Shown: positions 8,901 to 11,900 of the stretch, one piece after another | Layout of the letters: each line of letters begins with the position of its first letter | How positions within the stretch are numbered: position 1 is the stretch's first letter | Origin: Elusimicrobiota bacterium | Lineage (GTDB): Bacteria > Elusimicrobiota > Elusimicrobia > JACQPE01 | Assembly (NCBI GenBank): GCA_042563375.1 | Contig: JBHPMF010000005.1 | Location: 3,568-67,567, forward strand | Length of the DNA: 64,000 nucleotides | Reading direction: 5' to 3' | Position numbers and translations under genes: made by a program | The notes under the pieces: model-generated | Databases searched by the model: none | The model's input: only the letters and a program-made list of their open reading frames with translations | What the model was told of the DNA's origin: nothing

Positions 8901-11900
8901 TTGGAGCTTATTTGCGAGAAGTCAAAGAAGGGAACATCACCTTAAAAGACGGGGTAAAACTCTCTGACATGATAGAAGTCAATCAGACTTCAGCTTCATC
9001 CACTCTTCTTGAGGCAATACTTGCCAGGAAGAACGCGAACATCTCAGGCATGTCAGGAAGCCTTGAGGTTGTTAAAGAAATGGTAAGAGCCGGGATCGGT
9101 TCTGAAGTTGTCAGTGTTAAGACAAAAGCGCCCGGCAAAAGAGAAACAACAGTATATAACCCCATAAAACCCGATCTCACTTCACATGTCAAACAGATGG
9201 CCCTTGATGCTGTAAAAAGCGCAGAGAAAGGAAGAGGAGCTCTTGTGTGCGACCTTAAACACTCAAAAGCCATAGAGCGGATGGTAAAAGAACTTTCCCC
9301 TGACGCTAAAACATACAGGATAGATGACGCGACTTCTAAAGCAAAGATAGTGGAGATTACCAGGAACGCAGGAAAAGAAAAAGCAATTGTTTTCACAAAC
9401 AAAAGAGCCATAGAAGGCGCTGATTTCAAGGGAGATATAGATGTATTGGTCAATGCTGACCATTTGAACTCATTTAACTCGATACAGGCCATGGGCAGAG
9501 GAGGAAGATCAAAAGGCACGGTAACGCGCGCAAGTTTCTATTACACGCAAGACACTTTGACCACAATAAAGGATTTCATGGGCAAAAAAGCCAATAAGAC
9601 TTTAAAGAAAGCCATGATCGAGAAACTGGGCAAAGCAGAAGACCCGGTAATTGCCAGGGCTTACGAGAAAGCATTAAAAGGCAGGAATCTCTCCTCTGAG
9701 CAGGCAATAAAGCTTGCTAATGAGGTAAACCTCATAAAAGACAAATCAAGCGCTGCTTTTAAGCTCATCAATGAGGGAATAGACTACCTTGCAGTGGATA
9801 GCGTCATAAAACAAGCAGCGCTCATGTCAGAGGAAGCTTCTCTTTCAGGAGCTAAAAAAGTATTAGACACTACAATGAGAAAGCTCTTAAACGGAGAGAT
9901 CGGTCCCGGAGAAGCAGCTCTCAAGGAACTCTCCTATGACAACCCCCTTAAAGTCGCTGATAATGCGTTCGCCAAGGCGAAACTCAAAGCTGATGCAGTG
10001 TTCCCGAACCTTATAAAAGAGCTCTCAAGCAAGAAAGGAACCAAAAAGATCACAAATTACCTTAAGAACCATGTTAAAAACCTTGAAGCAATAGAAAAGA
10101 TAGGAACAGAGAATATTGTAGAAGCTCCAAAAGGCTCTCTTGATTCTTTTAAATACGCTACATCCTTAAAAGAAGTGATAGCAGTAAGCAAGAAGCTCGC
10201 AAGAGAAACAGTTCTTCCTCAATTAAAGACTTCCTCTTCCCGTAACGCAGCAGCCGGTATGCCGCAATCTTCTGCGAGTTCTGGTAACACGGGGGCTCGT
10301 CCCCCGCTTTCCTCTGCTAGTTCCGGTAGTCGCATGCTTAAGCGTGCGTCTGCAAAACACTCAGATGGCACAGCAGAAGGAACACCCTCCCCCCAACCCT
10401 CTCCACTCCTACGCCAAGGCTACGGAGCATCTCCGACCCTCAAGGGCGAGGGAGCCAAAGGAAATCCCGCTTCCCCCTCCTCTGTCATTGCGAGGAGCAA
10501 CGCGACGCGGCAATCTCAAAAGCAGGGTGGCACAAGAGTCGAAGAAACGGAATTTATAAGCAGTTCACGTAAGCAAGGTATCACCGCATCCCTCCTATCC
10601 CCCATCTCCGGAATACACAAACTTATCCAGAATGCGAAAACCAGGATCTTTTCCAGAAAATCAAAAAGACCGGAACCCCGGTACAAGGGACAGCTGATCG
10701 ATGACGATCCTCTTCATCCTCCTTCTCAACGCAGCGCAAATAAAGAAAAAACATACACAAAATCCTATCCTTCCGGCAAACCTAAAAAAGCCCTCACCCT
10801 GGCTTTGGCCGCCACAGCCGGCATCCTCGCTTACTTCGGATTGCCGGCCGCGGGAGAGGCGGCAGAATTAGCCACTCAAAGCGTAGGCTCGCGCGCTGCT
10901 GAGCTTATTTTCGTTATCACTGCTGCGCCAGTTATTGCAATAGGGATGTATAGGGCGATCAAAGGCCAGTGGGCGCTCATGAAATCCGGGCGCGATAACA
11001 GCGCAGTCGTTGCGACCATAGAGACTGAAAAAATGCCTGGAACCTCGATGGCGCCTCCCCATGACGGCTCTGCGGATTCTAACAAGGCCGATCCTGCTGA
11101 ATCTTTAAGGGATGGAGTTATTCTGGATATGGATTTCGACTCCGACGGCAAGCCTGTTTATATCGTAGAGCAGGATGGAAAGAGGCATATGGTCATTGGC
11201 AACCGGGAGTATTACACTATCCAGAACCTGACTTTCGACTTTGGCAGCAGCAATTCGGTTTATTTCAAGGATACGCATGGGAAAAAGGTTGCGATCATTG
11301 ACGGCCAGGCGTATGACATTGCCCACCATATGACTTCCAGCCACGACGGCAAGCCGGTCTATTTCATAGAAAAAGACGGAAGGCAGGTCGTAGTCATATA
11401 TGGCCGGATATACGGCGCCATACAGGGCCTGACTTTCACCTTCGGCAATAAGTCGGTTCGTTTCATTGAAACTGGGTGGCTTCACAAGGACAAAAGGAAA
11501 AATGTGATTATCGATGGCCGTTTATACAATATCGTTTCCGCCTCGGTTTTCAGCTCTGGCAACAAGCCTTTATACGCAAAAACATCGGAAACTTCCATGG
11601 CTGCTCCGCATAAAATCACCCCGTCCATCTTCTCGCGCATAAGCAGTCTGTTCCAAAGAGTCAAGGGCAAGTTCTCATCCAAAAAGACAACCCACGGCGT
11701 AAAATCCTATGGTTCGCCGCGTAGAGGCAAAAATGTTCCTGTCCTGGTCCTTGCCGCCACCGCCGGCCTCCTCGCCTTTTTCGGCCTGCCGGCCGCGGGA
11801 GAGGCGGCTATTCTAGGCACCGATGCTGCGGCGGCTCAGCTGGGTTCCGATATAGCGAGAGTTATTGGTGATGTGGCTGAGCAGGTGGCTGTCGTCACCT

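Follow-up and report, generated by a model that had tools for sequence, protein, structure and literature searches.

Selfish palindromic sequences that lie both between genes and in frame within protein genes are known from Rickettsia, where the Rickettsia palindromic elements (RPEs; Ogata et al. 2000, reviewed in PMC10969869) are about 100-150 bp long, encode a conserved peptide and occupy ordinary housekeeping genes of an alphaproteobacterial endosymbiont. Small non-autonomous repeats such as the Coxiella miniature inverted-repeat transposable element (MITE) QMITE1, intragenic ERIC and pneumococcal BOX are likewise fused occasionally in frame with host open reading frames (ORFs), as single, longer elements in scattered genes (PMC10969869). 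Repetitive extragenic palindromes (REPs) are recognised by an imperfect palindrome with a conserved GTAG tetranucleotide on the 5' side of its foot, the whole measuring 20-40 nt, and this GTAG head is required by the REP-associated tyrosine transposase (RAYT, or TnpA-REP) for binding and cleavage (PMC3333891); repeats of the SRM class (Ssn-related motifs) are cut as single-stranded DNA by the small GIY-YIG nuclease Ssn (PMC11893778). Giant proteins of many thousand residues, with numerous transmembrane (TM) segments between divergent domains, have been described from Omnitrophota and other small uncultivated groundwater or sediment bacteria in a study that makes no mention of palindromic repeats or linkers (bioRxiv 10.1101/2023.11.21.568195). 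Here we analyse 64 kb (the window; G+C 48%) of the contig JBHPMF010000005.1 from an Elusimicrobiota bacterium (GCA_042563375.1), in which two giant genes share several families of short palindromic repeats with the intergenic DNA around them, probably because their linkers and surface loops have been colonised in frame by the genome's own intergenic repeats as tolerated insertions.

As in-frame palindromic repeats are known from Rickettsia, this is not a new principle. Like the RPEs, the elements are palindromes inserted in frame that add a peptide at fold-compatible positions; unlike them, they are hairpins of 24-90 nt from several unrelated families, stacked in mosaics, read in several frames and found in giant modular genes only. 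Neither the length nor the conserved peptide of the RPEs is found here, and what we claim is that the elements work like RPEs, not that they are members of the group. With the intragenic MITEs they share small size, non-autonomy and in-frame fusion to host ORFs, the difference being that dense mosaics of several families here fill the linkers of one gene pair. What appear to be undescribed are the Elusimicrobia-like groundwater host, the giant modular genes as sole carriers, the stacked multi-family mosaics of REP and NTS/SRM type, and the documented frame-switching and site-specific turnover of the elements.

The ORF list shows the two giant ORFs on the + strand with ordinary genes on either side (Table 1). 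In a codon log-odds model trained only on the small genes of the window, in-frame scores are +0.30 for ORF1 and +0.27 for ORF2, while the other frames give -0.46 and -0.64 for ORF1 and -0.50 and -0.57 for ORF2; the giant ORFs are genuine coding sequence. A Pfam scan of the first 4,000 aa of ORF1 was without match. ORF2 carries three copies of a module of about 600 aa (M1-M3), of which M1 and M3 are 85% identical. The public gene call for ORF2 (P0121, 6,724 aa) begins at 28663, downstream of a palindrome-rich loop, thereby excluding 28444-28663, so that gene callers differ on the coding status of this linker. The proteins resemble the Omnitrophota giants in length, in their many TM segments and in their kind of host, but differ from them in their HEAT, NHL, WD40 and ClpB-like AAA+ domains and in a repeated boundary motif.

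A preliminary description of this DNA had listed at least seven palindromic families (F1-F7) as occurring in true intergenic DNA and, translated, inside the giant ORFs. All seven were found at the places given for them, with offsets of 1-8 nt and far above chance; the peptides quoted for them (VILNLIQDL, SVIARS..DEAI and PSPLEGEG) are also correct on translation. The number of kinds is smaller, since F2, F3 and F4 form one superfamily, which leaves a GTAG-headed REP (F1), GTCAT-headed hairpins (F2, F3 and F4), GC-rich palindromes (F5 and F7) and a heptamer repeat (F6). The repeats are confined to intergenic DNA and the two giant ORFs, with none in the 17 ordinary genes (17 kb). Perfect hairpins with a stem of at least 8 bp number 20 against 5.9 +/- 2.7 in simulated sequence, their density per kb being 0.73 between genes, 0.37 within the giant ORFs and 0.06 within ordinary genes, and in a sensitive self-BLAST intergenic DNA had nine short matches to the giant ORFs but not one to ordinary genes. 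An Rfam scan of the window at gathering thresholds gave no family match, and ARAGORN gave no tRNA.

F1 (GGTAGTCGCATGCTTRAGCGTGCG) has its in-ORF copies in the linker on which the preliminary description centred. It occurs at 522, 3347 and 10325 on the + strand and at 54501-54524 on the - strand (0 expected, 100 shuffles), with diverged copies at 485, 3390, 54542-54565 (-), 57237 and 57294-57317 (-), the window holding eight intergenic and two in-ORF copies in all. The consensus GGTAGTCGCA-NN-CTTNA-NNN-TGCG, with its GTAG head and palindrome, is present in all ten, and judged by its sequence F1 is a REP in the strict sense, sharing with the REPs, bacterial interspersed mosaic elements (BIMEs) and REPINs the GTAG head on an imperfect palindrome of 20-40 nt, the many extragenic copies, the tendency to lie in pairs and the covariation of stems (PMC3333891). 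The in-ORF copy at 10325 is identical at 28 of 29 nt to intergenic 520-548 and 3347-3375, and the head-to-head spacing of the in-ORF doublet (10283/10325) is 42 nt, compared with 37-43 nt for the intergenic doublets. A search of other genomes, taking one genome per species, found near-exact F1 (GGTAGTCGCAGGCTTTAGCCTGCG) at at least 116 loci (L001-L116) of many bacterial phyla, hosts among the matches listed being Ignavibacteria, Elusimicrobia, Omnitrophota, Nitrospirae, Clostridia, Planctomycetes, Aerophobetes and others. Among the matches listed, these copies are mostly inverted doublets with covarying stems, and three of 124 lie in a long open frame (about 98% extragenic). Copies are thus many and overwhelmingly extragenic, and the in-ORF doublet is the exception that forms the present finding. 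F1 departs from described REPs in that this doublet lies inside a coding frame although REPs are 'extragenic' by definition, in that its pairs in the window are mostly direct (three direct, one inverted at 57237/57317) where BIMEs and REPINs join a REP to an inverted REP through a linker, and in being present in many phyla although REPs are usually lineage-specific; near-identity over such a range was unexpected. CRISPR-like and tRNA-like readings of F1 were rejected, the former because units spaced 37-43 nt apart have no spacers between them and the latter because there is no cloverleaf.

The superfamily of F2, F3 and F4 is defined by a shared (yTCT)GTCAT head, a hairpin and an ATC tail. F2, whose head is GTCATCCTGAA, occurs at 26210, 26360, 39661, 46477 and 49010 (+) and at 49088-49098 (-); only a partial right arm is present at 2115, and a nested palindrome of 30 nt interrupts the copy at 28516. 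Its loops are of 5 nt, and a pattern with a fixed 8-nt loop matched nothing. F3 is exact at 10484, 21011 and 45211 and variant at 19964, and F4 lies at 5572, 5666-5690, 15820, 15910-15934, 35044 and 54053-54072. Stems of 8 bp with loops of 4-5 nt are found at 5572, 5690, 15820, 15934, 26210, 26360, 35044 and 39661. The likeness to the dRS3/NTS repeats of Neisseria and to the wider SRM class, all cut by SsnA (PMC11893778), lies in the oriented GTCAT-type head, the hairpin with a conserved C after the palindrome, the ATC(C) tail and the clustering of copies in mosaics near particular genes, and the sequence at 35043-35070 (TGTCATTCCTGCGAAAGCAGGAATCCAG) departs from the NTS consensus CGTCATTCCCGCGMAVGCGGGAATCYRG (PMC11893778) in nothing but its first base and a single compensated stem pair. 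Scanning with the strict pattern published for SRMs gave four matches against 0.23 expected, three of them clear copies (2086, 15819 and 15935); most copies here miss that pattern at one position or two. NTS/SRM repeats are described as flanking genes and ssnA, which codes for a single-domain GIY-YIG protein (cd10448), and in-frame copies in giant ORFs are not described in PMC11893778. MITEs are non-coding elements of 50-500 bp whose terminal inverted repeats lie between target-site duplications. A MITE-like shape, with 11-bp arms about 70 nt apart, occurs only in the intergenic 89-bp element at 49010-49098 and in the in-ORF stretch 46477-46567, which are homologous to each other; no target-site duplication was recognised at them.

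F5 lies at 14636, 33943, 38562 and 41803, up to 8 nt from the positions first given. The three copies in ORF2 are one event and not independent, as they stand at homologous positions of the triplicated module, and in M2 a pair of indels (-4/+10 nt) puts the element into another frame, in which it reads SPRPLRERA. The F6 heptamer is found at 26424, 28616 and 60185-60208 (-); by BLAST the ORF2 linker 28591-28641 is homologous to intergenic 60183-60233, and similar heptamers precede REPs in other phyla among the F1 matches listed. F7 is a run of 49 identical nt at 10397-10445 and 21351-21399 with unrelated flanks. Between genes, a dense BIME/NIME-like mosaic lies at 53979-54668, which contains inverted repeats of about 45 bp with (CTTATRG)n heptamers (54115-54150 and 54587-54630), an internal duplication of about 130 bp, two REPs and one SRM hairpin.

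These repeats are DNA-level elements and not protein motifs. The identical 49 nt of F7 are read in two frames, as is F5, and F4 is read in phase 0, in phase 2 and in reverse. Stems covary (ATTCCTGC/GCAGGAAT, ATCCTCGC/GCGGGGAT and ATTCCAGC/GCTGGAAT) and are kept through compensated pairs, while loop bases vary freely and change the peptide. The preliminary description had proposed that restriction to giant genes, together with conservation at the amino-acid level, would mark the sequences as protein motifs; on every count the opposite was found, with intergenic copies, several frames of reading, and presence and absence at the same sites.

Site turnover could be followed in paralogues and homologues. 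Homologues of the M module came from an exhaustive HMMER search (59 matches) after a word-indexed protein search had given none; they include large proteins in other samples, and palindrome-derived peptide signatures are present in the close homologues only and not in the distant ones. A metagenome scan added one short relative of the giant gene, L117 (1,492 nt, Hainich groundwater). The insertion found in M3 lies between NLNxEIK and LRLEVTDDP, a site that in L117 holds a different, F5-like palindrome with an in-frame stop adjacent. At the F5 site, the module copies of the homologue P0122 differ, one bearing an F5-type element and the other an SRM-type one (ILNQIQDD), and P0123, P0126 and L117 have none. 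The TM-hairpin loops that follow the M1-M3 paralogues contain F4, F2 or no palindrome, and in homologues the stretch after the module holds elements of PLSLEGRGQGE type or, translated as SGDTILNSGELSIVSP, a perfect palindrome of 46 nt. The measurable insertions are all multiples of 3. The presence/absence comparison that had been proposed as a check thus gave presence, absence and replacement at the same sites. L117 (440-1492) also carries a 51-nt GC-rich insertion inside a conserved core, between LANVYQG and DALVART, and has, besides its perfect 46-nt in-frame palindrome, an A9 run that immediately precedes the next TM helix, as at the ORF1/ORF2 junction described below.

The linker at 10244-10555 combines several of these families. 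It lies within 10187-10606, the stretch of ORF1 with the lowest codon score, and most palindrome windows in the giant ORFs rank among the lowest 15% by in-frame codon score. The disorder expected of such linkers was borne out here, with 83% disorder-promoting residues in the linker peptide against 58% in ORF1 as a whole, and a single-sequence AlphaFold (AF2) model, of low confidence (mean predicted local distance difference test, pLDDT, 44) and used for the contrast between coil and helix only, places the linker as coil between helices. Individual hairpins of the linker are predicted to fold as RNA at -8 to -22 kcal/mol; the whole 331-nt region folds slightly better than its shuffles (z = -1.8) and does not behave as a single structured unit.

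Module boundaries are marked by a signal-peptide-like motif found 13 times (10790, 11735, 12128, 13874, 18728, 20048, 21140, 26099, 28360, 34915, 39541, 42805 and 46378), in which a basic stretch is followed by LTLALAATAGILAYFGLPGTGEAA / LTLALAATAG(I/L)LAYFGLPG(T/A)GEAA or FLPWVLAPAIALLAFFGLPxASEAA and which has no NCBIfam match. The palindromes had been said to cluster precisely at these boundaries. They are enriched there, 13 of 23 elements lying no more than 450 nt from a motif where 6.1 would be expected (P ~0.003), but the clustering is not precise, as the other ten lie elsewhere and several boundaries are without any palindrome. At several boundaries CT-rich repeat DNA supplies the codons for the second 'helix' of the TM hairpin, one such stretch being that homologous to intergenic 60183-60233. 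The motif looks like an internal signal sequence that includes a cleavage site of AxA type, which raises the possibility, judged from sequence, that the giant protein is cut into membrane-anchored modules at these points. The boundary at 28360 lies at the junction of the two ORFs. The 3' end of ORF1 reads GCA AAA AAA AAG TCC TGA (window 28322-28444), and its A9 run (28342-28350), unmatched in length by any other A run of the window, provides an A_AAA_AAG slippery heptamer at which a -1 shift or one extra A would give KKKVLTLKSFLLFALIPAAVFLAALSLPGISEAA, the usual boundary helix, continuous with ORF2. Ahead of the ATG the ORF2 frame stays open and codes for the boundary helix, making the junction a stop-interrupted boundary; ORF1 and ORF2 may form one product of about 14,300 aa, either by frameshifting or masked by a homopolymer error.

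We consider it likely that the linkers and surface loops of the giant genes were colonised by insertion. Of the two origins that the preliminary description had offered, tolerated insertion of REP/MITE-like elements has the direct evidence given above, and for the welding of former spacers there are indirect hints only; its further suggestion of a major route of giant-gene growth was not supported, the elements adding tens of nt each while growth is visibly by module duplication, nor was its suggestion that the hairpins could structure the mRNA. Related hairpins are bound and cut as single strands by dedicated nucleases elsewhere, REPs by RAYT/TnpA-REP and NTS/SRM by the GIY-YIG Ssn, and elements of such kinds tend to gather side by side as mosaics. 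Within a giant gene, copies would survive, as described for the RPEs (PMC10969869), only if 3n long, free of stops and at a site tolerating any peptide, which is to say in disordered linkers, TM-hairpin loops and variable loops inside modules; they would then spread by module duplication, decay and be overwritten by new insertions, some of which may bring stops that split the gene. In this scheme the mobilising enzymes are taken from the literature, and we infer the direction of each event and its neutrality.

Several observations weigh against this account. All within-genome counts come from the one 64-kb window, in which there is neither a RAYT gene nor a transposase gene and the intergenic space of which contains no candidate ORF for ssnA, and target-site duplications were not seen. 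No orthologue of the focal region (10230-10560) was found by the word-indexed protein search, for which reason insertion at that place is read by analogy; as HMMER did find homologues of the M module, the negatives of the word search for the focal region and for the M module say little. Eleven of 12 GTCAT-type copies lie on the coding strand and ten of these 11 have the head in codon phase 0 (S-V-I), a bias for which stop codons account in part only and which points to linker duplication, target preference, or selection on peptide or mRNA. Some elements are, moreover, old and well preserved. The 18-aa palindrome-encoded peptide SPRPLRERASEARVRGTS is identical in M2 and P0122 though the P0122 module is 54% identical, which suggests constraint or conversion. 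The bias and the conserved peptide together argue against purely random, neutral insertion and leave room for linker duplication, target preference, conversion and some function. Tolerance of in-frame selfish palindromes is not restricted to Rickettsia, and 'extragenic' hairpins of REP and NTS/SRM type can inhabit coding sequence given long unconstrained linkers. Peptides such as VIPAKAGIQ, VIARS..EAI, PSPLEGEG and SGDTILNS..LSIVSP in large metagenome proteins are translated repeats rather than domains and mark linkers and loops, and the elements are natural markers for dating module duplications and for locating points of fusion and fission in giant genes.

The alternative that fares best is that an operon of genes for membrane or exported proteins was fused in frame, the palindrome-rich linkers being former intergenic spacers kept open by selection. 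This does not exclude later insertion, and we regard it as possible although on balance improbable. It is suggested by the 13 internal boundaries with their signal-peptide-like motif, by the ORF1/ORF2 junction as a boundary of the same type interrupted by a stop, by the order in L117 of module, palindrome, stop and new ORF in the same frame, and by the homology of the linker 28591-28641 to intergenic 60183-60233. The split states can equally be explained as secondary breaks, however, and many palindromes lie within modules, far from boundaries. Moreover, at most boundaries the palindromes follow the signal-like helix, in the TM-hairpin loop, where a fused spacer would precede the helix, and recently related paralogous boundaries differ in their palindromes or have none; because of this position after the helix and these differences between recent paralogues, the palindromes post-date the boundaries. 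Related to this is a proposal that we make tentatively and hold to be rather doubtful, namely that the palindrome mosaics are not mere passengers but joints for the assembly, breakage and re-sorting of giant genes: spacers rich in REP and SRM repeats would be the places where modules fuse or come apart, the ORF1/ORF2 junction and the stop in L117 would represent two states of the process, and the second helix of the TM hairpins would derive from recruited CT-rich repeat DNA. If this were so, giant modular proteins across uncultivated groundwater bacteria would owe both building material and a scaffold for recombination to selfish intergenic repeats.

It is unlikely that the elements are retained as functional nucleic-acid elements, whether as recombination joints for the shuffling or conversion of modules, as sites at which the mRNA is stabilised or processed, as pause sites that aid co-translational insertion into the membrane, or in an Ssn-type control over incoming DNA. 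Covarying stems and hairpins maintained over long times would fit such a role, as would the strong bias of strand and phase, the enrichment near boundaries and the association of dRS3/NTS with recombination and variability of neighbouring genes (PMC11893778). Against it, no Rfam family was matched, folding of the focal region is marginal compared with shuffles, several boundaries do without a palindrome, and copies are decaying, split by nested insertions or frame-shifted. That SVIxxx, PSPLEGEG and the like are functional short linear motifs, with DNA palindromy incidental, is very improbable and already contradicted: phase-0 heads do yield a recurrent S-V-I and the 18-aa peptide is shared by M2 and P0122, but the same DNA in different frames gives unrelated peptides, the same sequences lie between genes both here and in over 100 other genomes, loop changes alter the peptide with stems kept, and elements are missing at homologous sites of paralogues and homologues. 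Least credible of all is an artefact of misassembly or of chance open frames over repeat-rich non-coding DNA, which the metagenome-assembled contig, the CT-rich linkers open in more than one frame and the possible homopolymer error at the A9 run might suggest, but against which stand 7,496 and 6,797 stop-free codons with a strong frame-specific codon signal, Pfam domains along the length of the ORFs, homologous large proteins in other samples and repeats of 24-90 nt, below typical assembly k-mers.

Table 1. Giant ORFs and repeat elements of the window, in order of position within each group.
Position	Strand	Feature	Remarks
5867..28357	+	giant ORF1	7,496 aa; HEAT repeats, C-terminal ClpB-like double AAA+; nine boundary motifs
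28444..48837	+	giant ORF2	6,797 aa; HEAT, NHL and WD40 modules, triplicated ~600-aa M module
485..545	+	F1 direct doublet, intergenic	
3347..3413	+	F1 direct doublet, intergenic	
5572..5690		F4 hairpin pair, intergenic, inverted orientation	upstream of ORF1
10244..10555	+	focal linker	at least five palindromes in a row; ~104 Ser/Pro/Gly/Ala-rich residues between helical region and TM hairpin
10283..10306	+	degenerate REP-like unit GGTAACACGGGGGCTCGTCCCCCG	first half of in-ORF REP doublet
10325..10348	+	REP F1 GGTAGTCGCATGCTTAAGCGTGCG	translated GSRMLKRA
10396..10448	+	F7, composite GC-rich palindrome	translated PSPLLRQGYGASPTLKG
10484..10515	+	F3, SRM-like, GTCAT head	translated VIARSNATRQS
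14620..14680	+	F5, ~50 nt: CT-rich tract + CCCTCGCCTCTTGAGGGAGAGGG + TAGTGTGAGGGG	flanks unrelated to ORF2 copies
15820..15844	+	SRM F4 GTCATCCTCGCGAATGCGGGGATCC	phase 2, ASSSRMRGS; fits strict published SRM pattern
15910..15934	-	SRM F4, reverse orientation	translated MDPRLREDD; fits strict SRM pattern
19964..19988	+	F3 variant GTCATTGTGAGCGAAGCGCGGCAAT	
21011..21043	+	F3	translated VIARSDSDEAI
21350..21402	+	F7, second copy	other frame, translated LSTPTPRLRSISDPQG
26210..26447	+	ORF1 TM-hairpin loop	two F2 SRM hairpins (26210, 26360), CT-rich tracts, heptamers (F6 26424)
28516..28639	+	ORF2 first loop	F2 hairpin with 30-nt nested palindrome, then (CCCTCAG)n heptamers
33943..33965	+	F5 in M1	translated PSPLEGEG
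35044..35068	+	SRM F4 GTCATTCCTGCGAAAGCAGGAATCC	VIPAKAGIQ; TM-hairpin loop after M1; near NTS consensus
38562..38584	+	F5 in M2	translated SPRPLRERA
39661..39685	+	SRM F2	TM-hairpin loop after M2; translated VILNLIQDL
41803..41825	+	F5 in M3	translated PSPLEGEG
42236..42301	+	30-nt insertion with palindrome CCTCCCCCACCAGGGGGGAGG in M3	same site empty in M1 (34376-34411) and M2
45211..45243	+	F3	translated VIARSSSDEAI
46477..46567	+	F2 long form	arms GTCATCCTGAA ... TCCAGGAT around ~70 nt
49010..49098		MITE-like 89-bp element, intergenic	11-bp terminal inverted repeats GTCATCCTGAA
54501..54565	-	F1 doublet, intergenic	within repeat mosaic 53979-54668
57237..57317		F1 inverted pair, intergenic	57237 (+) and 57294-57317 (-)
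60183..60233	-	F6 heptamer-repeat element, intergenic	

The genes around the giant pair include two for ankyrin-repeat proteins and others for an ATLF-like protease, an M74 peptidase, an S9 peptidase and PepA. Elusimicrobiota metagenome-assembled genomes supply the closest named relatives of this PepA, at about 60% identity, which together with the groundwater origin of L117 points to an uncultivated, Elusimicrobia-like bacterium as the source. The protein with the ATLF (anthrax-lethal-factor-like) metalloprotease domain and the two ankyrin-repeat proteins flank the giant genes (584-1624 and 49141-51415), a hint that the bacterium interacts with a host cell, eukaryotic or other. The giant proteins themselves are poor in cysteine (three of 7,496 residues in ORF1 and seven of 6,797 in ORF2, against 1.24% in the 17 ordinary genes). 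ORF1 ends in a fused ClpB-like unit (AAA_lid_9, AAA_2 and ClpB_D2-small; window 26960-28357), and a disaggregase/unfoldase module terminating a membrane-tethered protein of 7,496 aa is unusual. Finally, the 43-kb gene pair is bracketed by a direct repeat of about 85 bp (83% identity), one copy lying upstream of ORF1 (5719-5805) and the other downstream of ORF2 (48840-48924), which could represent a shared promoter or terminator region or the ends of an inserted island.

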